Origin: an uncultured Selenomonadales bacterium
GTDB taxonomy: Bacteria > Bacillota > Negativicutes > Selenomonadales > Selenomonadaceae
Length of the DNA stretch: 64,000 nt
Direction of reading: 5' to 3'
Assembly (NCBI GenBank): GCA_937877565.1
Contig: CALFJB010000056.1
Coordinates: forward strand, 11,151-75,150
Under the pieces are notes generated by a model, which saw only the letters and a program-made list of their open reading frames with translations, ran no database searches and had not been told where the DNA came from. Each line of letters begins with the position of its first letter. Position 1 is the stretch's first letter. Made by a program: the position numbers and the translations under genes. Positions 1,767 to 63,345 of this stretch are shown here, piece by piece.

Positions 1767-2498
1767 ATGAAAGTTTTAAAAATTTTTTTATTGGCGGTAA
1801 TGTGTCTAAGTTGCGCCGGTTGTTTTCAAGCCGAATCCAATTTGAAAATTACTGACGACGGCGAAGTTACTATGAAAAATAAATTTATTGGTGCGCCGCT
1901 AATCGCCGGAGTTATCGAAGAATCTAAAAACAATATGCTGAAAAATAATCCCGACGCCAAAGTTAGAAATGTCAGCGAAGGCGGCTACAACGGCTACGAA
2001 ATTGAAATTTTTTATCCTGATATGGACAAATTCGCCGCAAATAATTTTGAAATGTATCAAGCGCGTCCCGGCAAATGTACCGGCGTTCAAATTTCGCACG
2101 GCTTTTTTTATGATACTTGCAATTTCGATTTACTTTTTGAAGGACAGAAAATTGACACTTCAGATTTAAACGCGGCAATGACTCAAGCATTTTTCGCGCA
2201 GATTAAATTTGATTTTGCAGTTGAAATACCTTACGCCGCCGAAAATTCCAACGCTGATTATATGAGCAACGACGGCAAAATTTTAACGTGGAATATCGCT
2301 CCGGCTTTAATCAACGGGCAGGATAAAGCTATGCAATTTAATTTTAAAATTTATCATCCGCTTAGAATTGCGGCAACATTTTTCTTGACACTGTTGGTTA
2401 TTGCGGGCGTAATTTATAATTTAACTCAAGTAAAAAATAGGAAGCTGGAGAAAAAGGAAATTAGGGAAGAAAATGAAAATCAAAACCCTAACCCCTAA
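1767..2498 (+). CDS. putative lipoprotein with C-terminal membrane anchor
   Basis: Internal ATG at 1767 gives signal peptide MKVLKIFLLAVMCLSCAGC (lipobox). The upstream part of ORF 1497.. overlaps the helicase 3' end. There is a C-terminal TM helix, and the last codons (QNPNP stop) lie inside a heptamer array. Confidence 0.6.
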   Translation: MKVLKIFLLAVMCLSCAGCFQAESNLKITDDGEVTMKNKFIGAPLIAGVIEESKNNMLKNNPDAKVRNVSEGGYNGYEIEIFYPDMDKFAANNFEMYQARPGKCTGVQISHGFFYDTCNFDLLFEGQKIDTSDLNAAMTQAFFAQIKFDFAVEIPYAAENSNADYMSNDGKILTWNIAPALINGQDKAMQFNFKIYHPLRIAATFFLTLLVIAGVIYNLTQVKNRKLEKKEIREENENQNPNP

Positions 2499-2519
2499 TT
2501 CCTAATCCCTAGCCCCTAA
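2461..2519. repeat. heptamer array (TTAGGGA ... CCCTAAC/CCCTAAT/TCCTAAT/CCCTAGC)
   Basis: Read directly; followed by the conserved leader CGACCGAAGGGAG (2523-2535) and the pfp start codon. Confidence 0.85.
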
Positions 2520-2543
2520 AAACGACCGAAGGGAGTTTTTTTA

Positions 2544-5210: not shown

Positions 5211-5254
5211 TATTTTTCCAAATTTGAAAATTTTTAAATTGATTAAATTTCAAA

Positions 5255-5290
5255 TCCCTAATCCTTAGTCCCTATTTCCTAGCCCCTAAC
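5255..5290. repeat. heptamer array (TCCCTAA TCCTTAG TCCCTAT TTCCTAG CCCCTAA)
   Basis: Read directly; lies between the comM stop and the MATE gene start. Confidence 0.8.
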
Positions 5291-6850: not shown

Positions 6851-7141
6851 TCAAGCGTCTATGTCGATTGTTGAAGAAAATCTTGTGTGTTGCCGCCTGT
6901 AAGTGTCATTATCTTTTTGTCGAAGTTCTTCTTCAATCTGCGCGAGTTGCCGCTCAAATTCGGCGCGTTTTGCAGGATTATTTTGAATTTGCTGTGATAA
7001 TTTTTTCTGATGATTTTTCAAATTTTCAATTTTAGAATCAACTTCATCTGTTGAGGCGGTTGTAATTTCTTCAGGTTGACGCGCTTTTTTTGGCACTTCA
7101 ATCGGCTGATAATTGTTTGAATTTACGCCGCTAATATTCAT
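6851..7141 (-). CDS. hypothetical coiled-coil protein
   Basis: 96-aa ORF in the operon gap, Gln/Glu-rich predicted helix; no family recognised. Confidence 0.4.
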   Translation of the reverse strand: MNISGVNSNNYQPIEVPKKARQPEEITTASTDEVDSKIENLKNHQKKLSQQIQNNPAKRAEFERQLAQIEEELRQKDNDTYRRQHTRFSSTIDIDA

Positions 7142-8807: not shown

Positions 8808-8886
8808 TAAAATTACCTCCAAAAATTTTTTGTAAAATATTTTTCAACGTGCAAATATTTTTTTCCTGCAAAGAATACGATATTTT

Positions 8887-10407
8887 TTAACCTGCGCTAA
8901 CGTAACTGCGATTGGGAATTTTATCCCATTCAATTTGATTGACGGCGATATTATTTTTCAAGCCGTAAGACGCCGCAATTCCCGCCGCTTCGCCCATACT
9001 CATACAAGTTGGCTGAATCCTTACTGACGCTTGCGCCGAAAAATCCGCACTTATGCAACGTCCCACAACTGCCAAATTTTCAAATTCATTTGTAACAAGT
9101 GCGCGGTAAGGTATTTCGTAAAATTCGTCTTTTTGAAATTTTGGAGAAAAATCTAATTTAGTATCATGAATATCAATCGGATAAGCCGTGCGGCAAACTG
9201 CATCAGGAAATTTTTTCCTGCCAAAATAATCATTAGCCGTCATATAATATTTGCCGTGAATACGCCATGATTCACGCACTCCTAAAATTGACGCCTCATG
9301 GCTGATATACGCTTTTTCAAATCCCGGTAAATTCTTGATAAAAAACTTTGCAAGGCGGCGCATCATTTTTCTGCCAAAAGTAACTGCCTTGCTGTAAGAA
9401 ATTGCATCAGTCGCGCTAAATTTCAATGGCGGCATTTCAGGGCAATTCATTGACATTGTATTTGGCTTGCCTTCAATCGTGAACGCTTGAATATACAAAA
9501 TATCATCCTGCGTAAGTTCGCCGCTTGCCACGCCTTTTTGGAAAAATTCTTCGGTTTTCGTCCATTTCGCAAATTCAAAAATTGGAGGTTTAGATATATT
9601 CCGAATCGGCGGTTTTATTACATTCCAGTCATCTTTTAATTTTTTCACGAAGAAATTACGCGCCTTCGTTTCATCAATTCCGCTCATTTCAAAGCGAAAA
9701 CTCATTGGCTGATTTCTGCCGGTTTTTTCAGAGCCTTTTTCGACAGGAACGCCTGCAAATCTTGCTAAAACTGCATCTCCCGTGCCGTCGATAAAAATTT
9801 TGGCGTCAATTTTATAAATTCCGCTGATTGTTTGAACTATGCAGGAAGTAATTTTTTGATTGTCAGTAACTGCACCAATAATCGACGTGTTGTATAAAAT
9901 TTCTACGCCGTATTCTTCGCACATTTCGTCATAAATTTCTGCAAGCAATTCTGGGATATAAAGACCTCTTCCGCCTCCATAATAAGTTGGCGTTTCAAAA
10001 TTCGGCACAGGTTCTTTAACGCCATGATTTTTCATTCGCAAATTTATTTCATCTATATAAGGCGTGTCGCTGTCAAAGGCAAAAGTCGGCATACAAGGAT
10101 AAACACAGCCCAAAGTTGCAAGCCCGCCCAATGCAATTCCTTTTTCAATCAGAATAACTTTTGCGCCATTTTTAGCCGCGTTAATCGCCGCCGCCGTACC
10201 TGCAGAACCGCCGCCACAAACGCAAACATCAGCACTAATCAAAGTTGGAATATTTGCGCCGTCGAAATTTATTTTTCTTTCAACGGTTGCCGCCTCCGCT
10301 TTTTTAGTTTCAATATTGCCGCTAAGCATAACTCCCGCCGTCGTTAAACCGGCAATTTTAAAAAAGTCACGTCTTGAAATTGGAATGTTAATTGAAGTTT
10401 TATCCAT
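8887..10407 (-). CDS. Tat-exported FAD-dependent oxidoreductase
   Basis: Twin-arginine signal SRRDFFKIAGLTTAG; dinucleotide fold DVCVCGGGSAGTAAA..VILIEKG. Confidence 0.75.
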   Translation of the reverse strand: MDKTSINIPISRRDFFKIAGLTTAGVMLSGNIETKKAEAATVERKINFDGANIPTLISADVCVCGGGSAGTAAAINAAKNGAKVILIEKGIALGGLATLGCVYPCMPTFAFDSDTPYIDEINLRMKNHGVKEPVPNFETPTYYGGGRGLYIPELLAEIYDEMCEEYGVEILYNTSIIGAVTDNQKITSCIVQTISGIYKIDAKIFIDGTGDAVLARFAGVPVEKGSEKTGRNQPMSFRFEMSGIDETKARNFFVKKLKDDWNVIKPPIRNISKPPIFEFAKWTKTEEFFQKGVASGELTQDDILYIQAFTIEGKPNTMSMNCPEMPPLKFSATDAISYSKAVTFGRKMMRRLAKFFIKNLPGFEKAYISHEASILGVRESWRIHGKYYMTANDYFGRKKFPDAVCRTAYPIDIHDTKLDFSPKFQKDEFYEIPYRALVTNEFENLAVVGRCISADFSAQASVRIQPTCMSMGEAAGIAASYGLKNNIAVNQIEWDKIPNRSYVSAG

Positions 10408-10425
10408 TAAAATTTTTCCCTCGTT

Positions 10426-10773
10426 TTATATTAAAATTTCGTGTGCAAGAATTTTTTCAACTTGTCGTTTCAATTCCGGCAATTCGTTTTTTATGGTAAT
10501 GTAAACGTCGCGCATTCTCAAAGTATCGTATTTGTGCGCCGCAATATCTCTAAATCCTGCTATTGCTTTCCATTCAATGTGAGAATTTTTTTCTCGAAAT
10601 TCCGGCGTTAAAGTTTTTACCAATTCGCCAACTCGAATTACGGACATTGCCATTGCAAGTTTTAATGTTTTACTTTGCAGAAAATTTTCTTTGGAAACGT
10701 CTCCAAAAACTTCAAGTGCTTCTTCAATGGCGTTAATAATTTTTTCTAAAGTAATTTTATCTCTATGCTGCAT
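10426..10773 (-). CDS. hepT: HepT (DUF86) toxin of a HepT/MntA module
   Basis: RX4HXY motif FRDIAAHKY; start ATG 10773 overlaps the mntA stop (ATGCAGCATAG). Confidence 0.8.
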   Translation of the reverse strand: MQHRDKITLEKIINAIEEALEVFGDVSKENFLQSKTLKLAMAMSVIRVGELVKTLTPEFREKNSHIEWKAIAGFRDIAAHKYDTLRMRDVYITIKNELPELKRQVEKILAHEILI

Positions 10774-11050
10774 AAATTTCAATTTCCTTTTCAACTTCAA
10801 GAAAATCTTCAGCCTCAAGCGGTCCGTGTATAATGTCAACTTTAACGCCAAGAATTTCTTCCAACTTAATCATCAAACTGGACAATTTAAGCAAAGAAAC
10901 CGCGTCAGTTTCAAATTCAACAATCAAATCAACGTCGCTATTTTCAGTGGCTGTACCGTTAGCGCGGGAGCCAAAAAGCGTAACTTTTTTCAAATTGTAT
11001 TGCGGCGCAATTTCGGCAACAACTTTTTTAATATCGTCAATCGTCAGCAT
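10763..11050 (-). CDS. mntA: MntA nucleotidyltransferase antitoxin
   Basis: Minimal NTase motif GSRANGTATENSDVDL; start at ATG 11050 after GGTGA. Confidence 0.8.
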   Translation of the reverse strand: MLTIDDIKKVVAEIAPQYNLKKVTLFGSRANGTATENSDVDLIVEFETDAVSLLKLSSLMIKLEEILGVKVDIIHGPLEAEDFLEVEKEIEIYAA

Positions 11051-11090
11051 TTTTATCACCTTATTTATCAAATTTGCCGCGAATATCTTA

Positions 11091-11378
11091 CTATGCTGCG
11101 TAAAGTTCAATTTCTTTTTCAATTTCGAGTAAGCTGTTTTTGGTAATTCCGCCGCGACTTATAACGTCAACATTTAAGCCGAAAATATCTTCAAGTTTAT
11201 GCTTTAATGAAATGTGTTTAAGCAAGCCCGTTTCTTCAGGAAAATCAACAATCAAATCAATATCGCTATTATCCGCAGCTGTACCATTTGCACGAGAACC
11301 AAAAAGCGTAACTTTTTTCAAATTGTATTGCGGCGCAATTTCCGCAACAACTTTTTTAATATCGTCAATCGTCAGCAT
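11091..11378 (-). CDS. second MntA-like nucleotidyltransferase (tandem paralog, no own HepT)
   Basis: First ~40 residues MLTIDDIKKVVAEIAPQYNLKKVTLFGSRANGTA are identical to the neighbouring MntA. The upstream leader is also duplicated. Confidence 0.75.
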   Translation of the reverse strand: MLTIDDIKKVVAEIAPQYNLKKVTLFGSRANGTAADNSDIDLIVDFPEETGLLKHISLKHKLEDIFGLNVDVISRGGITKNSLLEIEKEIELYAA

Positions 11379-11388
11379 TTTTATCACC

Positions 11389-12822
11389 TCACTTATCAAA
11401 TTCGCCGCGTATATCTTCAACCGGCGGCGCAATAGGATAATTTCCACTGAAACAGGCATCACAAATTGGCAAGCCGCCCGCCATTTCTTTTAAACATTCA
11501 AGCGGCAAATATCCAAGTGAATCTGCGCCAATGTGTTTGCAAATTTCCTCAACCGTGCGCCCGTGTGCAATAAGTTGATCTTCGCTGGGAATATCAATAC
11601 CGAAATAGCACGGGTGATAAAACGGCGGACTTGAAACGCGCATATGTACTTCCTTTGCGCCCGCGTCTCGTAACATATTTACAATTTGGTTGCTTGTAGT
11701 ACCGCGCACAATCGAATCATCAATCATAACAATTCGCTTGCCTTCAACCACGTCGCGCAGGACGCTTAATTTGACTTTGACACTTTGAACGCGGGTAGAC
11801 TGTTTGGGCTTTATAAAAGTTCTGCCGACGTAAGTATTTTTCGTAAATGCAATTCCATAAGGTATACCTGACGCCATAGAATAGCCGACCGCCGCCATAT
11901 TGCCGGATTCCGGAACACCAACAACTAAATCTGCGTCAACGGGATGAGCCTTCGCCAAAAGTTTACCGGCAGTAATTCGCGCCTTCGTTACGCTCCTGCC
12001 GTCAAAAGTTGTATCAGGGCGGCAAAAATAAATAAACTCAAAAACGCAGCGTGCAGTTTTATCGTGTTCAATCGCCAAAGTCATATCAGATTTAATTTCG
12101 CCGTTGGGCAGAATTGTAACAACTTCGCCGGGCAAAACGTCACGAACAAATTTAGCGTTAATCGTTTCAAGGGCGCAAGTTTCAGAAGTCAAAATATAGG
12201 CGTTGTCCATTTTACCGATAACCAACGGGCGAAAACCAAATGGATCACGTGCGCCAATAAGTTTACGCGGACTTGCGATAACAAGCGAATATGAGCCCTT
12301 AACTTTTTTCAACGCTTTAACGGTTGCATCTTGTACGGACTTTGCATGAACTCTTTCACGCGCAATGTGATAGGCGATAGTTTCAGTGTCGGTGGTAGTC
12401 TGGAAAATTGCGCCGTTCATAGCCAATTCGCGCCGAAGTTGCGGAGTATTAACCAAATTGCCGTTATGTGCAAGCATTAGCGTACCTTTTATATAAGCCA
12501 AAACCAGCGGCTGTGCATTTTCACGGGTAGAGCCGCCCGCCGTCGAATAGCGAACGTGTCCAATTCCCAAATTTCCTTTCAACGCCATTAAATTACTTTC
12601 TCTGAAAACTTGATTGACGCGCCCCAAATCTTTTTGACAAAGTACGCTGTCTTTGCCGTCGAAAGTGTCAGTAACGGCAATACCTGCGCTTTCCTGCCCG
12701 CGATGTTGCAGGGCGTACAAGCCGTAATAAATCGTTGGGGCAACGTCGCCGCCGTCCAAGTCATACATACCGAAAACGCCGCACGCCTCACCAACTGAAA
12801 TTTCCATATCGCCAAAATCCAT
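11389..12822 (-). CDS. purF: amidophosphoribosyltransferase
   Basis: Ntn cysteine CGVFG after a short propeptide, PRPP loop VMIDDSIVRGTT, C-terminal Cys cluster. Confidence 0.95.
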   Translation of the reverse strand: MDFGDMEISVGEACGVFGMYDLDGGDVAPTIYYGLYALQHRGQESAGIAVTDTFDGKDSVLCQKDLGRVNQVFRESNLMALKGNLGIGHVRYSTAGGSTRENAQPLVLAYIKGTLMLAHNGNLVNTPQLRRELAMNGAIFQTTTDTETIAYHIARERVHAKSVQDATVKALKKVKGSYSLVIASPRKLIGARDPFGFRPLVIGKMDNAYILTSETCALETINAKFVRDVLPGEVVTILPNGEIKSDMTLAIEHDKTARCVFEFIYFCRPDTTFDGRSVTKARITAGKLLAKAHPVDADLVVGVPESGNMAAVGYSMASGIPYGIAFTKNTYVGRTFIKPKQSTRVQSVKVKLSVLRDVVEGKRIVMIDDSIVRGTTSNQIVNMLRDAGAKEVHMRVSSPPFYHPCYFGIDIPSEDQLIAHGRTVEEICKHIGADSLGYLPLECLKEMAGGLPICDACFSGNYPIAPPVEDIRGEFDK

Positions 12823-12847
12823 TTAATTCGCTCCCTTCGGTCGCTCA

Positions 12848-12884
12848 TTAGGGGTTAGGGATTAGGGGCTAGGGATTAGGGATT
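12848..12884. repeat. heptamer array (TTAGGGG TTAGGGA TTAGGGG CTAGGGA TTAGGGA)
   Basis: Read directly; between the mnmG stop and the purF start. The adjacent leader 12831-12843 is the complement of CGACCGAAGGGAG. Confidence 0.85.
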
Positions 12885-12935
12885 TGAAAAACTAGCCGCT
12901 ACTACCTTTCCTTTTTAAAAGCTATTATATTTGCT

Positions 12936-28438: not shown

Positions 28439-28463
28439 TTTTAATTTCTCCTTTCAGTCGAAA

Positions 28464-28584
28464 TTAGGTGTTAGGAATTAGGTGTTAGGAATTAGGTGTT
28501 AGGAATTAGGTGTTAGGTGTTAGGTGTTAGGTATTAGGGATTAGGGATTAGGGAAGTGTAAAACCTAAAACCTAAAACCTAAAC
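28464..28584. repeat. heptamer array forming an imperfect hairpin (TTAGGTG/TTAGGAA/TTAGGGA arm, CCTAAAA arm)
   Basis: Read directly; about 17 units. It overlaps the stop codon of the fiber gene and is followed by leader 28447-28461. Confidence 0.9.
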
Positions 28585-33425: not shown

Positions 33426-33496
33426 GTACTTTCTTTCCATTCGAAAAAAGAAAGTACCATGCGCGGCTTGCAAATGCGAGGAGTACGAGCATTTGC
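33426..33496 (-). repeat. stem-loops HP1 (33426-33457) and HP2 (33470-33496) upstream of the fiber gene
   Basis: In mRNA sense HP2 reads GCAAATGC-TCGTACTCCTC-GCATTTGC. This is the same loop as at 354-380, with a compensatory stem change. Confidence 0.7.
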
Positions 33497-33497
33497 T

Positions 33498-33540
33498 CCT
33501 AACACCTAACACCTAAAACCTAACAGCTAACACCTAAAAC
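33498..33540. repeat. heptamer array (CCTAACA/CCTAAAA/CCTAACAG)
   Basis: Read directly; encodes the last residues (LGVSC stop) of the 392-aa ORF. Confidence 0.85.
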
Positions 33541-34698
33541 ATATCCAAACACTTCCGCCCCGCCTTCTACTTCAATCCTGCCGCTCACTTCACGTAATGT
33601 ATCACCCAGCGTCCTATACTTAAACCGCGTCTTCTCCAATTCAGAAAAATCTAACGTCATCATCTGCCAATTCTCCGCCGCGTAATATTCATAGCTCGCC
33701 ACTATTTCTAACCCCGCCGACGCCGTCAGTTTCAAACTCGAAATTCCTGTATCCAATTCATAGTCAAAAAATGGCAAGCCTCCTATTTCCAAATGTAACG
33801 TGTCCTGCGCCACGTACCTATCCGGCAAATATATCGTCTGCTCAATTCCCGCCGTTTGCCCCAATATCACATTTTCGGCGCGTTTAGTTTCCATATTCAA
33901 ATTTACCCACGCCTTCAACTCTCGACCTTTCAACGGCTCGTGTTTTACTAACAAATAGCAAGTTTTCAAGTCCGCCGAATAGTTTTCTGTCTTCGTGTAA
34001 AACGTCCGAACATTCGCCGCATTTTTATTTGAGTCCTCTACATATTCAATTTTTAAACTGTCGATTGACGCCGCGTCCGTCCCGTCCAACGTCGTTACTA
34101 CAAAGTTTGTACGGAACTGAATCGCTTGCGCCACTTGCCCTTCAAATAAAGTGTAATAGTCCCAGTCGCTCCATTCGCCGCTAATCTTTCTAACCCGCGC
34201 ACTCGTTACCGCCGTTGCATTGTTTTCAGTCGTCTGACGTTCAGTCAATTTTACGATTCTTGCATTTTCCGCCAACTCAAAAATAGGCGAATAACTTAAA
34301 CGCGTGTAAACGTCGTTGTAGCTTGAAACTTTCAACGCCAATTTGATTTTCGGCATCACTTCAAAATCAAACGGCGCACTCAACGCAATTATCGGGTAAA
34401 CTTTTTTATTGACGAACGCCGGAATATTTTCCAGCTCCAACAATTCGCCGACCGTGTTCCCGTATTCCATCACGTCTTCAAATTCCCCACGGTACGGGTA
34501 CGGGTCCAATATCCCGTTCACAAATCTATACAGCGCGTCTTCTATCTTGAATATTATTCGCCGCATTGTTCCCGGCGGTTCTGTCCCGCCTATTTCAAAG
34601 CCTCTACAATTTGTCTCGTACGTTAAATCAAATGGTGCTAGCGATTTTATTAAGCCGCGTTTCAAAAATTTGTAACTGCTGCTCCCGTAATTTTTCAT
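33520..34698 (-). CDS. hypothetical phage structural protein (392 aa)
   Basis: Sits between the small-gene cassette and the fiber gene; ATGA overlap with the upstream gene; no family recognised. Confidence 0.55.
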   Translation of the reverse strand: MKNYGSSSYKFLKRGLIKSLAPFDLTYETNCRGFEIGGTEPPGTMRRIIFKIEDALYRFVNGILDPYPYRGEFEDVMEYGNTVGELLELENIPAFVNKKVYPIIALSAPFDFEVMPKIKLALKVSSYNDVYTRLSYSPIFELAENARIVKLTERQTTENNATAVTSARVRKISGEWSDWDYYTLFEGQVAQAIQFRTNFVVTTLDGTDAASIDSLKIEYVEDSNKNAANVRTFYTKTENYSADLKTCYLLVKHEPLKGRELKAWVNLNMETKRAENVILGQTAGIEQTIYLPDRYVAQDTLHLEIGGLPFFDYELDTGISSLKLTASAGLEIVASYEYYAAENWQMMTLDFSELEKTRFKYRTLGDTLREVSGRIEVEGGAEVFGYVLGVSC

Positions 34699-34889: not shown

Positions 34890-34922
34890 TTTTATTACCT
34901 CCAACCTAAAACCTAAAAAAGA

Positions 34923-35672: not shown

Positions 35673-35698
35673 TTTTTATTTCTCCTTTCAGTCGAAAT

Positions 35699-35752
35699 AG
35701 GATACAGGATACAGCTTAAAAAAATGTTTCCTGTCTCCTGTTCCCTGTTTCC
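35699..35752. repeat. heptamer hairpin of a second unit type (AGGATAC x2 arm, CCTGTCT/CCTGTTC/CCTGTTT arm)
   Basis: Read directly; intercistronic. Confidence 0.8.
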
Positions 35753-35757
35753 TAAAA

Positions 35758-36252: not shown

Positions 36253-36255
36253 CTT

Positions 36256-36285
36256 CCTGTCCCCTGTCTCCTGTCCCCTGTCTCC
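36256..36285. repeat. heptamer array (CCTGTCC/CCTGTCT)
   Basis: Read directly; abuts the sheath stop codon. Confidence 0.8.
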
Positions 36286-37931
36286 TATATAAACAACGTC
36301 TCAAAATAACTCGTGTCTACTTCCATCTCAAATACTATCTCCTGCGCAGGCGGCGGACTCAACCAGTACAATCTAAAGTGTAACGCCCCACTCATCAAAT
36401 TCGCCGTCGTATTCTCATCTTCCGGAAATTCAAGCCTTGCTCCTAATAACGCTCCTCGCGCCGCCAAACTGCTCAAATATATGTTCGCACTCTGCAATAT
36501 CCCTTCTATGTTCCGCCTATTTATCGGATTGTCCAAATTCGTAAAATAAGTTATCGTCAAATACGCCGTCAAAAAATTCAACATCCTACGCGTCGCTATA
36601 AATTCGTCCTTATAGTCTTCGCCGGGTCCTACACTCGTATAATTACCCCAATATTTCCAGCTCCCCCAACTAAATACCGTCCCTACTCCATTTGCATTTA
36701 ACAAATTAGCCTGCTCCTGCAACAATATCATTTCCGTTCCATCTGCTGTCACCGCGCTGTCAATTTGCAATCGCTGATTCGACGGGCTCACATACGGCAA
36801 CCCGTCATTTTGACTGTCTACCTGATTCATCAACGCCGCTAAATGTGTTGACAAGTAATATTGCACGCCGTCCAACGCAACTTTAGGATAACAAACTATT
36901 AAATGCGGGTCGGACAAATTGCTCTGATTCTTAAATTCTATCGCCGCTTGATACGTCGTATTTCGTGCGCTGTCCAAGTCCGCTATCGCCACACCTTTAA
37001 ACACGCCGTCTATCGACTTCGCCTTATTCGTCAACGCCGCCGCCACGCTATTTTGTAAACTGTACTTAGGCGCAATTAACGTTCCAGGTACTATGTTAAA
37101 GCGCGCGTAAATCCCACCCACTTTTTCGATATTGTCTATTATATCCTGCGCCGTCACTGCAGACGGATCCAATTCGTGGTACGTCACTTTCACTTTGTCG
37201 TCAATTATCAAACTTTCATCCAAAATTGTTACCTGCGCGAAACTATCGCCGCTTTGAATATCAAAATCCAAACTGCGCAAATTATTTATACCGCGCGTCG
37301 TCACTTCCACTGATTCTAAAATGGCGTCTTCAGGTAATACGTACTTGCCATTTGTTAAATTAGCGTAAGCAACTTCAACTACTACCGGTTCGCCGCCAAG
37401 TGCCGTTTCAGTTTTACGGTAACTGATTTTCACAGTCCCGCCCAATAAAATTTTGCCGCTTGCATTTGAAATTGTAACGGACTTTTCAGTTATGGCTTCG
37501 TCGCCTTCGCCGGTCGTTACTTCCGCCGTCGTAATGTCATCAGCTAAATCAATATCGCCTTGATTGACGCCGGTCGTAACTGCAACCGTGTCCAAAATGA
37601 CTTCGCCTTCAAGTTTGAAACTTGCCTGCCCTTCAATTTCTTTTTCAATTTCCTTGAAATGTTTGCTGCCGTTCAGCGCGTTAATGCAGATAACCGGCGC
37701 AACGTTGTACAATTTGAAAAAGGTTGCTGCCACTTCCTCAAGCGTGTAATTGTCAAAGTCGCCGACGTAACCGAAATTTTCCACAAATTCCTTGTACGTG
37801 TAGCAGATAACCGGTTTGTCCTGCGCGATTTTCGCAGTGCCTATCGCAACGCAAATGCCGCTGTCAATTTGTACAGGAGCTTGAATTTGCGTCGCCACTT
37901 CACTAATATAAATTCCGTGTCTTATTGCCAT
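36285..37931 (-). CDS. contractile tail sheath protein
   Basis: N-terminus MAIRHGIYISEV..VAIGTA..KPVICYTYKEFVENFGY..YTLEEVA and C-terminal ..LPYVSPSNQ..GNYTS..RRML..DNPINRRN match the remembered Mu/P2-type sheath pattern. Confidence 0.7.
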   Translation of the reverse strand: MAIRHGIYISEVATQIQAPVQIDSGICVAIGTAKIAQDKPVICYTYKEFVENFGYVGDFDNYTLEEVAATFFKLYNVAPVICINALNGSKHFKEIEKEIEGQASFKLEGEVILDTVAVTTGVNQGDIDLADDITTAEVTTGEGDEAITEKSVTISNASGKILLGGTVKISYRKTETALGGEPVVVEVAYANLTNGKYVLPEDAILESVEVTTRGINNLRSLDFDIQSGDSFAQVTILDESLIIDDKVKVTYHELDPSAVTAQDIIDNIEKVGGIYARFNIVPGTLIAPKYSLQNSVAAALTNKAKSIDGVFKGVAIADLDSARNTTYQAAIEFKNQSNLSDPHLIVCYPKVALDGVQYYLSTHLAALMNQVDSQNDGLPYVSPSNQRLQIDSAVTADGTEMILLQEQANLLNANGVGTVFSWGSWKYWGNYTSVGPGEDYKDEFIATRRMLNFLTAYLTITYFTNLDNPINRRNIEGILQSANIYLSSLAARGALLGARLEFPEDENTTANLMSGALHFRLYWLSPPPAQEIVFEMEVDTSYFETLFI

Positions 37932-37955
37932 TAAAATTTCTCCTTTCAGTCGAAA

Positions 37956-38145
37956 TAGGGACTAGGGACTAATCCTTAACCCCTAACACCTAATCCCTAA
38001 CCCCTAATCCCTAATCCTTAACCCCTAACCCCTAATCCTTAACCCCTAATCCTTAACCCCTAACCCCTAATCCTTAACCTCTAATCCTTAACCCCTAACC
38101 CCTAATCCTTAACCCCTAACCCCTAATCCTTAACCCCTATAACCT
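37956..38145. repeat. longest heptamer array (TAGGGAC x2, then about 24 units of CCTTAAC/CCCTAAC/CCCTAAT)
   Basis: Read directly; runs into the last codons (LGYRG stop) of the upstream gene; leader 37939-37953 precedes the sheath start. Confidence 0.9.
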
Positions 38146-38564
38146 AAGGGCGTCTGTATTCGGTACGTTAATAAAAATTGGCTGAAAATGAAATCGCTGT
38201 CATCCTTTTCAACCGTTGCAAATTCAACCGGCAAGTCTAAGGCTGCCGCGCCAACTAATTTGTTACGTAAAATCCATTCTCTAACTTGTTCAGCTAGATT
38301 TAAATTATCCTGCCACGCGGCGGAAGTTTCGGCGTACGTGCCTAAGCTCAATAAAACAAGCGCGGTTGAAATGTCCGCGCCGTCGGTAGTTGCCAAAAGT
38401 TCCACGCAAATTAACGGGTATGACGCCTCAATTTTATCTGCCGGTACTGTTTGTACGAAAGTTTGAACGTGATTCAAGCCCTCGTACTGCGCCGGGAATT
38501 TGAAATGTGCGGAGGCGTCGCGCAGTTTTTCAGCTAAATGTTCAATAAGTTTTAAAGGAGTCAA
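38130..38564 (-). CDS. neck/tail-terminator-like protein (lambda U position)
   Basis: 144 aa, positioned after the Z-like gene; called from position and size only. Confidence 0.4.
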   Translation of the reverse strand: MTPLKLIEHLAEKLRDASAHFKFPAQYEGLNHVQTFVQTVPADKIEASYPLICVELLATTDGADISTALVLLSLGTYAETSAAWQDNLNLAEQVREWILRNKLVGAAALDLPVEFATVEKDDSDFIFSQFLLTYRIQTPLGYRG

Positions 38565-39079
38565 AATATCGCCACGCTTTCAAGGTTAGCCGCCAAATGT
38601 TTATCAAAACGCTGCTGAATTTTCCCTAAAATCAGATTGGAAATAGGCGGCGGTTTTAACATACCGGGCGCGCTAACAGTTTTAAGATGTCGAATTGGTA
38701 GACGCCGCTTGCCAATTCTTTCAAAAACTGCGCCGTTGTAGATGAACGCACGGCTGATGAAACCGCCTTGCCCGCGAACGACTTGAGCGAAGATGCCGCG
38801 TTTAGGCGGACGCTTAAGACGTTTACGGGGATTGATTTTAAACTTTTCGAGGGGATTAGCCGCGCCTTTGGAGGAAAGTTCGCCGGTTAGACCGCTGACT
38901 TTAATTTTTAAAGGACGAGTGCCAACGCCGGGATTGGTATAACGTTGTTTGATGCCGCTGGACGCGTCGGTTTTCGTGTCTTTGAGAGTTTGGCGAATAG
39001 ATTTAGAGATGGCGCGGATAATTGCGTTGGAATTGGCGCGCAAAGTTGGGATTGAACGCGGCGAAATTTTAAGTTGCAT
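38561..39079 (-). CDS. lambda gpZ-like tail completion protein
   Basis: ..KINPRKRLKRPPKRG..VVRGQGGFISRAFI.NG.VFERIGKRRLPI..K parallels lambda Z (..RRRRKKGQRS..VVGNRRIPGAFIQQLKNGRWHVMQRVGKNRYPI). Confidence 0.55.
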   Translation of the reverse strand: MQLKISPRSIPTLRANSNAIIRAISKSIRQTLKDTKTDASSGIKQRYTNPGVGTRPLKIKVSGLTGELSSKGAANPLEKFKINPRKRLKRPPKRGIFAQVVRGQGGFISRAFIYNGAVFERIGKRRLPIRHLKTVSAPGMLKPPPISNLILGKIQQRFDKHLAANLESVAIF

Positions 39080-39101
39080 AAGAATTTCTCCTTCGTCGAA
39101 A

Positions 39102-39176
39102 TTAGCTGTTAGCTGTTAGCTGTTAGCTGTTAGGTATTAGGGATTAGGGAAGTGTAAAACCTAAAACCTAAACCCT
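39102..39176. repeat. heptamer hairpin array (TTAGCTG x4, TTAGGTA, TTAGGGA x2 arm; CCTAAAA arm)
   Basis: Read directly; overlaps the last codons (GFRF stop) of the 116-aa gene. Confidence 0.9.
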
Positions 39177-39511
39177 GAAGCCTGTTCGTCAACGGATAAA
39201 GTAAGCCGCGTAATACCTTGAGCTTCAACAGATTCTGAAATTCGGTATTTTTTGCCGTTGAGAATAACGCTGCCGCCTGCCTTGAAGTTGCCGCAGGATT
39301 TAAAGTAAATAGTTAAAAAATTGCCGTGCAAAATGTTAGCGTGGCGGGTACTGTCAAGTTGTTTTTTGACGGTGTAGCCGGTTTTACTTGCGCCGGTACT
39401 TCGTATTACGACGGCGGGAATATTTTTTTCGTTCAGCTCAACGACTTCAGCGAATTCATCTAAATTAATGAACGTTAAAAAATCTTCCTGTAAAATATCT
39501 TTGAAACTCAT
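39161..39511 (-). CDS. lambda FII-like head-tail joining protein
   Basis: 116 aa versus 117 aa for lambda FII, same gene position, similar hydrophobic pattern. Confidence 0.45.
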   Translation of the reverse strand: MSFKDILQEDFLTFINLDEFAEVVELNEKNIPAVVIRSTGASKTGYTVKKQLDSTRHANILHGNFLTIYFKSCGNFKAGGSVILNGKKYRISESVEAQGITRLTLSVDEQASGFRF

Positions 39512-50911: not shown

Positions 50912-50998
50912 CCTAAAATAAGGGCTAAGGTTTAAGGGTTAAGGGAAAAATCCATAATCCTTAGTCCCTAATCATTAATCCCTAATCCTTAATCCCTG
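50912..50998. repeat. heptamer hairpin array (CTAAGGT/TTAAGGG arm; TCCTTAG/TCCCTAA/TCATTAA/TCCTTAA arm)
   Basis: Read directly; overlaps the stop codon of the DnaC-like gene. Confidence 0.85.
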
Positions 50999-60647: not shown

Positions 60648-61733
60648 TCACTCCAAAGCATTAGCACCGCCAACAATTTCGTTAATTTCGTTAGTGATAC
60701 CGGCTTGACGTACTTTGTTATAGTACAGATTGAGTTTGCCAACTAATTCTTGAGCGTTATCAGTTGCGTTACTCATTGCGTTCATACGTGAAGAAAGTTC
60801 AGACGCCGCACTGTGCAACATTGCGCCATAAATTCTTGTAGCAATTCGGCGCGGCAGAAAATCATTTAAAACCGTCACAACGTCCGGCTCGTAAATGTAT
60901 TCTTCCTTTGAATTGGTAGTGCGCTTGTAGTCATCAGTTACCAACGGCAAAAGTGTAACATCTTCCGGCGTACAACTAATCGCAGAATTAAAACGCGTGT
61001 AAACCATTGTAACGTCAATAATTTCGCCGCTCAAAAATCTTTCCATAATTAAATCAGCAATTTCTTTGGCGTGATGATAACTTGGGCGTTCGCTGATACC
61101 GTGATAACTTTTAATAATTTTGTAGCCGCGTTGTTTGAAATGTGAAGTTGCCTTGCGTCCAACCGTTATAATTTCAATGTCATCAACATAATCTGCGTCG
61201 TGAGTGTCCTGCGCGACACTGATATTTTGAGTATTGTTTGCGTGACGATGTGCGCCCGCTCTAGTCAAACTTTTTTGCGCTTTAAGTTGATCGCCGTCAA
61301 TACCTTTTGCCATTTTTACCGCGTCAAAATTTTTTTTATGGAAACTTTCTTCTTTGTCTGCATCAGATTCTTCAGGGGACGTGCCGTCATATTCGATTGT
61401 TGCATGAGCCTCTTTGAAAATATTGCTGGAATACGCGCCCGCCAATCCTTTATCTGCCGCAATTACCAAAAATAAAAATTTGCCGTCAGTTCTAGTTTGC
61501 GCGTCAATCAGTGCTTGCCGTGACATTACAAAAGGACTTTCTTCATCAGTTGACATTTGCGACATAATTCTTTTGATAATATCACGAGTTTTTTCAACGT
61601 ACGGAATATTTGAAAGTAACGTATCTTTAGCGGCGTTGAAACGTGAACGCGCTATCATATCCATTGCGTTGGTAATTTTTTGGATACTTTTAACCGAGCG
61701 AATACGGCGGCGAATATTTTGTAAATTTGCCAA
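60648..61733 (-). CDS. atpG: F1 ATP synthase gamma subunit with an internal ~65-aa insertion
   Basis: (M)ANLQNIRRRIRSVKSIQKITNAMDMIA N-terminus and QAGITNEINEIVGGA C-terminus. Start set to TTG 61733, 9 nt after GGAGG. Confidence 0.9.
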   Translation of the reverse strand: MANLQNIRRRIRSVKSIQKITNAMDMIARSRFNAAKDTLLSNIPYVEKTRDIIKRIMSQMSTDEESPFVMSRQALIDAQTRTDGKFLFLVIAADKGLAGAYSSNIFKEAHATIEYDGTSPEESDADKEESFHKKNFDAVKMAKGIDGDQLKAQKSLTRAGAHRHANNTQNISVAQDTHDADYVDDIEIITVGRKATSHFKQRGYKIIKSYHGISERPSYHHAKEIADLIMERFLSGEIIDVTMVYTRFNSAISCTPEDVTLLPLVTDDYKRTTNSKEEYIYEPDVVTVLNDFLPRRIATRIYGAMLHSAASELSSRMNAMSNATDNAQELVGKLNLYYNKVRQAGITNEINEIVGGANALE

Positions 61734-61757
61734 ATACAAAAACCTCCTTTCTTTTTC

Positions 61758-61823
61758 AGGGATTAGGTGTTAGGTGTTAGGTTTTACACTTTCCTAATAC
61801 CTAACCGCTAAAACCTAAAACCT
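61758..61823. repeat. heptamer hairpin array between atpA and atpG
   Basis: AGGGATTAGGTGTTAGGTGTTAGGTTTT arm, loop, then CTAATACCTAACCGCTAAAACCTAAAACCT arm. Confidence 0.9.
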
Positions 61824-63345
61824 ATTCAGCAGTTTTGTAGTTGATAGTTTCTTTAAATTCTTTAATCGCCGCGCTAATTTCCGCCTCAAGTGCATCATCA
61901 AGTTTCTTTTTCTCAACAATTTTCTTGCCAATTTCGGCGTGGCGGCTGTGCATAAATTTCAAAAAATCTGCGTGGAATTGAACAACTTTATCAACGGGAA
62001 TATCAGTTAAAAATCCTCTAACTGCAGTAAAAATCGTTAAAATCTGATCTTCAACCTGCAACGGCGAATATTGCGCCTGTTTCAAAGTTTCAACCATACG
62101 TGCGCCTCTGTCAAGTTGCGCCTTTGTAGCTTTATCCAAGTCAGAGCCGAATTGTGCGAACGCCGCCAACTCACGGTACTGCGCCAAATCCAAACGCATT
62201 GTACCGGCAACTTGTTTCATAGCTTTAATTTGCGCCGAGCCGCCAACACGTGAAACTGATAAACCGACTGAAATTGCGGGGCGAATACCTGAATAGAATG
62301 AATCTGTTTCAAGCATAATTTGTCCGTCTGTGATTGAAATAACGTTTGTAGGAATGTAAGCTGAAACGTCGCCCGCTTGAGTTTCGATAATTGGCAGGGC
62401 AGTAATTGAACCTGCGCCGAGTCTGTCAGAAAGTTTGGCGGCGCGTTCCAAAAGTCTTGAATGTAAATAGAAAACGTCGCCGGGATATGCTTCACGTCCG
62501 GGCGGGCGTCTCAAAAGTAATGACATTGCACGATAAGCCGCCGCGTGTTTCGTTAAATCGTCGTAAACGCAAAGGCAATGTCCGTGTTTTTCGTACATAA
62601 AATATTCAGCCATTGCAACGCCCGCGTAAGGTGCAAGATACTGCAAAGGCGCAGAATCCGCCGCAGTTGCCGCAACAACTATTGAATATTCCATTGCGCC
62701 ATGATCTTCCAAAGTTTTAACGACACGTGCAACAGTCGAGGCTTTTTGTCCAATAGCCACGTAAACGCAAATACAATTTTGCCCCTTTTGGTTAATAATC
62801 GTGTCAATCGCAATAGCTGATTTACCAATACCTCTATCGCCGATAATCAATTCACGTTGTCCGCGTCCAATAGGTACAAGCGCGTCAATCGCTTTTAAAC
62901 CTGTCTGCAACGGCTCATGAACTGATTTTCTGTCAGCAATACCGGGAGCTTTAAATTCGACAGGGCGGCTTTGAGTTGTTTCAATAGGTCCTTTGCCGTC
63001 GATAGGGCGTCCGAGTGCATCAACTACGCGCCCAATCATATTATCGCCAACCGGAACCTGCATAATTCGCGCAGTGCGTTTTACCGTTGCGCCTTCTTTA
63101 ATTTCGTTGTCGCGTCCGAGTATAACCGCACCAACGTTATCCTGCTCAAGGTTAAGAACCAGCCCAAAAATATCATTGCCGAAATCTAACAATTCGCCGG
63201 ACATTGCTTTATCTAAGCCGTGAATGTGTGCAATACCATCGCCGACCTCTATAACCGTGCCGACTTCATCAACATTTAAATCGACGTTGTAATTTTTTAT
63301 CTGATCCTTAATTATAGCAGTAATTTCATCTGGATTTATTTTCAT
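61822..63345 (-). CDS. atpA: F1 ATP synthase alpha subunit
   Basis: Walker [16 protein letters not shown], 507 aa, conserved throughout. Confidence 0.98.

Follow-up and report, generated by a model that had tools for sequence, protein, structure and literature searches.

The window analysed here, a 64-kb stretch of DNA (C56:11151-75150) from an uncultured Selenomonadales bacterium, carries genes of a myovirus-like prophage and of its host, and arrays of tandem heptanucleotides lie between genes of both. The genome bin to which it belongs (G000; 3.21 Mb, 39% GC, 112 contigs) comes from a bioreactor metagenome and a k127 short-read assembly. The focal array, at 37956-38145 on the minus strand, reads in the mRNA sense as 25 G-type heptamers (TTAGGGG, TTAAGGA, TTAGGGA and others) followed by 2 C-type units (GTCCCTA), with a higher-order period of 35 nt; since the bin was assembled from short reads, the unit count of long arrays is uncertain, that of the 26-unit focal array, seen in a single assembly, included. 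On its upstream side, the open reading frame (ORF) of a virion protein (38130-38564) ends at a TAA 15 nt into the array. On its downstream side lies a 27-nt leader (CCTATTTC-GACTGAAAGGA-GAAATTTT; 37933-37959, minus strand), a mini-hairpin with the Shine-Dalgarno (SD) sequence, which serves the tail sheath gene (36285-37931). We interpret this array and its relatives as copies of a dispersed intercistronic repeat module that belongs to a known bacterial class of heptanucleotide inverted repeats and has a predicted role in RNA processing, RNA stability or insulation, a reading to which we give an even chance.

Genome-wide, runs of CTAA/TTAG at period 7 number 161, compared with 3 in shuffled sequence; after addition of CCT/AGG-phased runs and merging, the census stands at 163 loci with 206 arms, 7.4 kb in total in a 3.2-Mb genome, and Tandem Repeats Finder reports 368 rows with period 7 in the bin. 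The units conform to CCTA[AG]NN, the commonest being CCTAAAA, CCTAATC, CCTAACA and CCTAACC, and a second class to CCTGTNN; in each, a 5-nt core is invariant and the other 2 positions are free to vary. On a gene map made with a crude ORF caller, placement is non-random, contrary to the random placement that the sequence-only reading had named as refuting its view: 117 loci lie between co-directional genes, 15 between convergent and 11 between divergent ones, 12 overlap the last codons of an ORF, and just 3 fall in ORF interiors, in a genome that is 86% coding. Divergent gene pairs hold 11 of the 143 intergenic loci, as against 20% of the intergenic length. Among the interior cases, a CCTAACC-type array at C38:31682-31718 sits in the middle of a 498-aa ORF, where an irregular unit keeps the frame open; this may be an in-frame insertion or two genes fused by the ORF caller. 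Other dialects that lack a TTAGG core (AATTACG, CATTACG) form arrays in like positions at about 100-230 of contig C86 in this bin and, in the related genomes G002 and G012, upstream of purF.

About 110 printed junctions share a single layout, in which, in the mRNA sense, the upstream stop codon is followed by (TTAGGNN)4-5, a short AT-rich loop, (NNCCTAA)4-5 and an A-rich linker with the SD and the start codon; class II arms place ACAGGNN and NNCCTGT in the same positions. Relative to the end of the upstream stop codon, the G arm starts at a median position of -2 to -4 nt, and the distance from the end of the C arm to the next start codon has a median of 24 nt. Of the 206 arms, 170 have 4-5 units; module length is 70-110 nt, the modelled stem is about 30 bp, and some 45 copies, about a quarter of the loci, end in the 27-nt SD mini-hairpin. 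The proneness to slippage suggested in a sequence-only reading of the window fits poorly with so narrow a range of arm lengths, only two arrays of the window being expanded, 37956-38145 in its G arm alone and 28463-28584 in its C arm alone. Where both arms were detected in this genome, the G arm precedes the C arm in 43 cases and follows it in none; across 41 genomes, counted per strand, the figures are 98 and 0. Such an order would be trivial if all copies derived from one hairpin, because the reverse complement of a hairpin keeps it, but that argument leaves unexplained why the same order holds in Xanthomonas (PMC4692102) and in other phyla.

Stop codons at the arrays are TAG in 61 cases, TAA in 17 and TGA in 4, compared with 441, 1621 and 723 genome-wide, so most upstream ORFs end in the array's own TAG. 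TTAGG contains TAG and CCTAA contains TAA, and a period of 7 nt brings a stop into every frame within 21 nt on both strands, which is why ORFs take a few residues from the arrays; the same point has been made by MacGregor for TAACTGA repeats (PMC4679880). The recurrence of TAG or TAA every 7 nt, together with short spacers, also largely accounts for arrays that start at or inside stop codons. The observation that some ORFs draw their last residues from arrays is supported, as is the abutment of arrays on stop codons, though not the generalization that they always begin there, some lying 30-80 nt from a stop.

The leader follows the scheme 5'-AAAANN-GA-C(Y)-GAA-(R)G-GA-N'N'TTTT-3', with two tandem G-A blocks and a GAA triloop, and its C-GAA-G turn is known from the very stable d(GCGAAGC) mini-hairpin. 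In 26 copies, 84% of cells are paired, and the covariation score of 0.497 compares with 0.178 for shuffles, none of 500 of which reached it, and with at most 0.165 for slid controls. Pair 7-21 is UA in 11 copies, GC in 8, CG in 5, AU in 1, UG in 1 and unpaired in none, and pair 12-16 is UA in 15, CG in 10 and UG in 1. A sub-variant follows the same scheme but has one more G-A block (AT-GA-GC-GA-CC-GAA-GG-GA-GC-GA-AT). The predicted stability of the hairpin as RNA is low (-3 to -8 kcal/mol), and the start codon lies 9-10 nt past the core in 27 of 35 leaders defined by regular expression. A covariance model, R1, finds 45 copies in this bin. Among 25 genomes of the genus it has matches in 18, six of which hold 17-26 copies each, and among 16 other genera of the class it has matches in just one, which suggests that the mini-hairpin is specific to the genus. 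An Rfam search (gathering score or E <= 1) returned no family at arrays or leaders. The sequence-only reading had listed six conserved leaders containing a ribosome-binding site (RBS) in the window: five are matches to the model (2516-2542, 12824-12850, 28441-28467, 35675-35701 and 37933-37959), and the sixth, at 39087-39099, is a short-core variant. Prophage leaders share the stem variant TTTC/GAAA, and three of four combine it with the core GACTGAAAGGA, a pairing absent from host copies. Leaders also occur on their own: at least 4 of the 35 lack arms, and at 7040-7070 of the window, upstream of ORF 6851-7141 on the minus strand, there is a lone leader-like hairpin, AAAATC-GATTGAAGGA-GATTTT, without heptamer arms.

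Folding predictions set the module junctions apart from control junctions. For 91 array junctions the median minimum free energy is -31 kcal/mol with a median z of -3.9, z falling below -2 in 74%, compared with -20 kcal/mol, -0.9 and 31% for 80 array-free control junctions of similar length. The stems are imperfect: the TTAG/CTAA cores pair and the variable positions are often mismatched, because arms of different dialects come together in one module. The long imperfect hairpin formed by a G-rich and then a C-rich arm, as the sequence-only reading had pictured it, has the support of both arm order and folding.

Comparison with related genomes reveals junctions in both filled and empty states. 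The mnmG-to-purF module (12824-12912, minus strand) comprises a degenerate G arm, a 5-unit C arm (12847-12884) and a leader (12824-12850); the junction amounts to a 100-nt module, leader included, in G000, and to a 15-nt spacer with its own SD in the two closest species, whose PurF is 90-91% identical. Between the genes for a YifB-family protein and a MATE protein, two relatives have an ATGA overlap of stop and start, and in G000 an insertion of 90 nt takes the place of roughly the last five codons and provides a TAG; the G arm at this site (5253-5290, minus strand) stands in place of the last codons. Filled and empty sites show about 15 nt replaced at two junctions, with no target-site duplication, and in two other empty-site comparisons the right-hand boundary falls immediately before a native TGAAAGGAG, which is compatible with copying via microhomology at the SD. 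Neither terminal inverted repeats nor target-site duplications were seen at the modules, and no autonomous partner was identified. Mobilisation of the RAYT or IS200 type was considered and rejected: the Y1 transposase (PF01797) scores above cut-off only in G000, G002 and G015 and is absent from most module-carrying genomes, among them the module-rich G004, G005, G007 and G014.

Between close species, modules tend to stay at a junction as their sequence changes. G007 has 16 leader-bearing junctions, and at 11 of them G000 likewise has a module, where the base rate is 6%; at the shared junctions the units differ (TTAGGAA-type versus ACAGGAA-type, for example) and the leader variants often differ as well. 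The junction upstream of the PPi-phosphofructokinase (PFK) gene (window module 2461-2542, plus strand, with C arm 2486-2522 and leader 2516-2542) holds a module in G000, G005 and G007, the units in G005 and G007 being different from those here, and its leader stem is compensated, AC/GT going with CC/GG in one genome and CT/AG with CT/AG in the others. Differences between class I (TTAGG/CCTAA) and class II (ACAGG/CCTGT) are likewise compensated between the two arms. Copying is also visible within genomes. In G000, 13 arm pairs share 4 consecutive units where 0.6 would be expected, and the unit string CTGTTTCCTGTATCCTGTCAACTGTTTCCT recurs at no fewer than 4 loci; in the more distant G017, all 20 copies read share one leader and near-identical C arms, a homogeneous set that looks like a recent burst. 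Taken together, these comparisons of sequence indicate that the modules are dispersed copies that spread, persist and get overwritten, and that simple local slippage does not explain them. Beyond what the sequence-only reading had recognised, then, the leader is itself a covarying hairpin, and the modules are dispersed copies with lineage-specific bursts.

All twelve arrays named in the sequence-only reading were recovered by Tandem Repeats Finder in the window. Apart from those already described, the prophage carries a module before a gene for a 66-aa protein (28441-28584, minus strand; G arm of 3 units, C arm of 13, leader at 28441-28467) and another before the tail-completion gene 38561-39079 (39087-39183, minus strand; G arm of 3 units, C arm of 7, with CAGCTAA and TCCCTAA), whose short-core leader is TTTC-GACGAAGGA-GAAA. 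A class II module (ACAGGNN/NNCCTGT) occupies 35675-35753 on the minus strand, with its leader at 35675-35701, and a class II arm at 36255-36286 on the minus strand (CCTGTCN on the plus strand) lies immediately 3' of the sheath gene stop codon. At 33498-33540 there is a G arm in the mRNA sense (minus strand) into which ORF 33520-34698 reads and in which it stops at TAG; a different short hairpin repeat follows. A weak AACCTAA array of 2.3 units (34903-34918, no strand assigned) is marginal in Tandem Repeats Finder, and a G arm-loop-C arm hairpin (TAAGGGN/NATCCTT; 50912-50998, minus strand) separates prophage early genes. In the host portion, a hairpin module (61758-61824, minus strand) lies between atpA (61822-63345) and atpG (60648-61739). 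The occurrence of arrays in essential operons as well as in the phage is supported, and atpA/atpG, mnmG and purF were confirmed by NCBIfam.

Several neighbouring features deserve mention. The short hairpin repeat that follows the G arm at 33498-33540 (about 33455-33497; some 32 nt, GGAGCAAATGCTCNTACTCNTCGCATTTGCAA, with arms GCAAATGC/GCATTTGC) is inserted beside or inside heptamer modules at no fewer than 8 junctions, this one and others on contigs C8, C30, C35, C38, C63, C77 and C102 of the bin. The atpG ORF as called encodes 363 aa and fits the 286-position gamma-subunit profile in two stretches, for which an N-terminal extension, an internal insertion or a mis-called start may account. Downstream of purF, a 2.5-kb insertion (8830-11391) missing in G005 and G007 contains two small nucleotidyltransferase (MNT-like) genes, a HepT-like gene and an FAD-dependent oxidoreductase gene. 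In G007, the region of the mnmG 3' end and the spacer before purF is spanned by a tandem duplication of about 130 nt (L152, G007:C8:47738-48300).

Two kinds of operon, both long and highly expressed, are enriched in modules. Eight loci lie in the ribosomal-protein super-operon (the S12-to-L17 cluster), a per-junction enrichment with P of about 7e-4; the S12-S7, S19-L22, L6-L18 and S13-S11 junctions were confirmed by NCBIfam, and EF-G-EF-Tu, EF-Tu-S10 and S4-RpoA were assigned from N-terminal sequences only. In the prophage, modules occupy 7 of 22 junctions (P about 2e-4), and the enrichment is that of the late operon. A related prophage in G004, with a sheath protein 43% identical, has a 2-unit hairpin at the same junction as the focal array, and the second prophage of G000 has no hairpin there; an IMG/VR search with the sheath protein found no relatives of the prophage.

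Within the genus, 14 of 25 genomes have the TTAGGNN hairpin pattern; outside it, none of 16 genera of the class does. The species without it have other units instead (CACTGAC and TCACTAA in G007, TTAGTGG in G015, TTAGCTG and TTAGTGG in G017), and the dominant unit is species-specific, as with TTAGGAA in G016-G018. The nearest named public metagenome-assembled genomes (MAGs) are 'uncultured Selenomonadaceae' from sheep (86-92% amino-acid identity) and 'Quinella sp.' from rumen; a literature search for the repeat in Quinella or Selenomonadaceae found nothing. Farther afield, a scan of one genome per GTDB species gave at least 119 TTAGGNN-hairpin stretches, in each of which the arrays extend into the flanks. 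The matches listed come from Cyanobacteria, Bacteroidota, Acidobacteriota, Patescibacteria, Chloroflexota, Planctomycetota, Deinococcus, Pseudomonadota and a Bathyarchaeota MAG, and at these loci 60% of stop-side genes end within -25 to +10 nt of the array, with neighbouring gene pairs 35 times convergent, 53 times tandem and 8 times divergent. On IMG/VR viral contigs, 29 stretches run G then C and 10 run C then G, and 7 of these 10 reverse cases belong to a 12-nt iteron family and are not heptamers. That phage family (L178, L180, L181, L207, L208, L211, L213) carries 12-nt TTAGGTGTTAGG iterons beside an inverted CCTAACACCTAA copy and looks like an origin or operator array.

The alternative that we take most seriously, as possible if not probable, is that the modules are selfish or neutral repeat DNA, which arises by replication slippage and hairpin-templated copying, spreads by illegitimate recombination and persists only for being harmless, given stops in three frames and an SD of its own, its RNA without function. 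Several of our own results weigh against a functional module and sit well with neutrality. Presence or absence differs among close species, so that no single copy can be indispensable; occupancy is not conserved at greater distance, the G017 junctions being mostly empty in G000 with only 1-2 of 15 occupied; arm sequences turn over fast; and the downstream genes have no functional theme (FlgC, GreA, CoaE, GroEL, Def, LeuD, PFK, PurF, AtpG). The covarying leaders are, moreover, paralogues in one genome, so that some of the covariation may go back to a few master copies and not to many independent compensations, and the complementarity of the arms could also be maintained by DNA-level conversion between them. 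Repeats of the same kind are found in many phyla, with no function established for the kind (PMC4692102). Neutral repeats would not be expected, however, to remain at 11 of 16 junctions between species that share about 80% DNA identity in the flanking genes, in a genome with so little non-coding sequence, nor to hold their arms to 4-5 units, nor to keep structure while sequence is replaced, as happens in the leader stem and also in the arms, where TTAGG/CCTAA alternates with ACAGG/CCTGT. The enrichment in ribosomal-protein operons, where junk should be tolerated least, also speaks for the module with a role at the junction.

Other explanations make more specific predictions. The arms could be arrays of sites for a candidate oligomeric protein that binds single-stranded RNA (or DNA) with a 7-nt register, opening or clamping the hairpin and so setting downstream expression. 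HutP reads UAG-N4 three times, and CspB binds heptamers; an invariant 5-nt core with two free positions, dominant units that differ between species and the strict arm order would all suit such a reader. Several dialects coexist in one genome, though, class II units lack UAG, and no candidate protein was identified, so we think this unlikely. HutP itself was rejected, PF09021 being found in 0 of 25 genomes of the genus and above cut-off in 12 of the 16 other genera of the class; its absence from the genus may be fortuitous, or the protein may not be compatible with hundreds of UAG-heptamer arrays. G-quadruplex (and i-motif) regulatory repeats, as proposed for GGGAATC in Xanthomonas and GGGGAYT in Nostoc, are suggested by the GGGG tracts of the focal array, whose predicted RNA energy goes from -47 to -83 kcal/mol when quadruplexes are allowed, and by the roughly four units per arm, the number that a quadruplex needs (PMC4692102). 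Four typical modules gain nothing in the same prediction, the paired C arm competes with the quadruplex, and about half of the units carry only GG (TTAGGTT, TTAGGTG, TTAGCGG, ACAGGAA), so that G3+ tracts do not characterise the family; the capacity for quadruplexes is in any case a hypothesis of Rehm et al. 2015 and does not define the whole repeat class (PMC4692102). As a general explanation we reject it as quite improbable, and regard it as plausible for the focal array only. Long stable hairpins right behind stop codons, many of them between convergent genes among the matches listed from other phyla, might also be read as intrinsic terminators or attenuators within operons. After the C arm, however, there is an A-rich sequence with the SD and at no array a U tract, a terminator scan picked up no array, and the ribosomal-protein and atp operons need read-through; the modules are not intrinsic terminators, and a terminating or attenuating role is very improbable. 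Artefacts of assembly, finally, are hardly credible. They are brought to mind by the k127 short-read assembly, by a 190-nt focal array that exceeds a typical read and by the fact that the only other sequence record found is an identical contig, yet some 160 loci have a consistent anatomy, orthologous modules occur in independently assembled species of the genus, and arrays occur in other phyla.

Returning to the intercistronic module, it is self-contained for translation and brings with it what a gene junction needs: its 5' end supplies a stop in any frame, and the 3' end of about 45 copies supplies an SD at constant spacing from the start codon, and the modelled stem of about 30 bp between stop and SD would bring the two ends together. 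In the scheme that we propose, the module would be transcribed as part of a polycistronic mRNA, and the long stem could be either a processing site of the RNase III type or a barrier to exonucleases. The stem would keep the upstream stop and the downstream RBS close, translation restarting from a standard SD, and the weak mini-hairpin may prevent the SD from pairing with the anti-SD-like C arm. Insertion would hence be nearly harmless, or useful, even in essential operons, and this proposed proximity of stop and RBS, with protection of the SD, could be why modules are tolerated or favoured in ribosomal-protein and phage late operons. The genome contains an RNase III gene (rnc), and in Coxiella a 28-bp intervening-sequence stem with heptamer repeats is cut by RNase III (PMC4990558). 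A bolder version, which we offer as speculation and consider rather improbable, holds that the modules are a hitherto undescribed class of tiny mobile 'cistron-junction cassettes', made up of a three-frame stop, a heptamer-zipper hairpin and a structured RBS, that colonise operon junctions, including those of ribosomal-protein, ATP synthase and phage late operons; that phages may carry them between hosts, which they serve as standard expression parts; that the 7-nt register, the dialects and the G-then-C order come from a putative trans-acting factor or copying enzyme; and that the same system operates in other phyla.

This lineage offers an unusually clean version of the repeat, with a fixed layout, a searchable 27-nt motif, orthologous junctions both filled and empty, a recent burst and copies in ribosomal-protein operons and a prophage. 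Such a version makes testable how a repeat spreads without a recognisable transposase and whether it processes, stabilises or insulates polycistronic mRNAs. Should the modules prove to work as self-contained cassettes at gene junctions, they would lend themselves to operon engineering as natural intercistronic parts.

The likeness to STRR and REP-like elements, remarked on in the sequence-only reading, is apt. Mazel et al. reportedly described the cyanobacterial STRR heptamer arrays in 1990. Like them, the present repeats are tandem heptanucleotide arrays abundant in intergenic DNA; the STRR, however, have units such as CCCCAGT and heterocystous cyanobacterial hosts, and the units here are TTAGGNN/ACAGGNN in relatives of Selenomonadaceae/Quinella. 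To our knowledge, a stop-hairpin-SD cassette layout has not been described for STRR. REP/BIME, Correia, ERIC and BOX elements are dispersed hairpin repeats of 30-150 nt, co-transcribed in operons, some of which act as mRNA stabilisers or RNase III sites, and the intercistronic sites of phage T7 are stems processed by RNase III. The former group, covered in part by PMC3333891, lacks heptamer periodicity, and REPs need a RAYT (Y1) transposase, which the majority of genomes in the genus do not have. With the RNase III stems, namely the T7 sites and the 23S rRNA intervening-sequence stems (PMC4990558), the modules share imperfect stems of about 28-35 bp within a longer transcript, and the Coxiella intervening sequence even has tandem heptamers whose copy number varies between strains (PMC4990558); unlike the modules, these stems are not genome-wide families, and cleavage of the modules is a prediction by analogy.

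Closer relatives are found among the heptanucleotide repeats proper, heptamers being, as the passage on Mrazek et al. 2007 and long simple sequence repeats in PMC4679880 has it, the commonest long class in many bacteria. The sequence-only reading recognised no family that it could name for the arrays, but one can be named from this literature, in which a class of heptanucleotide simple sequence repeats in inverted pairs is already described for Xanthomonas and Nostoc (PMC4692102), along with TAACTGA (PMC4679880). In Xanthomonas (GGGAATC) and Nostoc (GGGGAYT), Rehm et al. 2015 found heptamer units, four being preferred, between aligned ORFs and rarely between divergent ones, with the G strand following a stop codon and the C strand preceding the next ORF, and 70-75 convergent inverted pairs; position was conserved, sequence and length varied, no functional theme emerged, and function was left unresolved (PMC4692102). 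Shared with the modules are the 7-nt tandem units, about four of them, the intergenic co-directional bias, the convergent G-then-C pairs, the position retained between species as length and sequence vary, and the lack of a functional theme. Here, by contrast, the units are TTAGGNN/ACAGGNN, half of them cannot form three-tetrad quadruplexes, and the host belongs to the Negativicutes; the TAG within the unit, the covarying SD mini-hairpin, the evidence of copy bursts and the prophage copies are additional. The TAACTGA repeats of marine Beggiatoaceae, some cyanobacteria and Bacteroidetes, patchy across lineages (MacGregor 2015, PMC4679880), are again heptamers with stops in all three forward frames, hence ORF ends, that lie just before start codons and in ribosomal-protein operons. 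They differ in being nearly all direct (169 direct sets, 1 inverted), with no predicted structure and usually without a canonical SD (PMC4679880). The kind of repeat is therefore already known, from Xanthomonas, Nostoc, STRR and TAACTGA; what is new here is the unit with its own TAG, the lineage of the host, the SD mini-hairpin with its covariation, the evidence of bursts and of replacement in place, and the enrichment in ribosomal-protein operons and the prophage.

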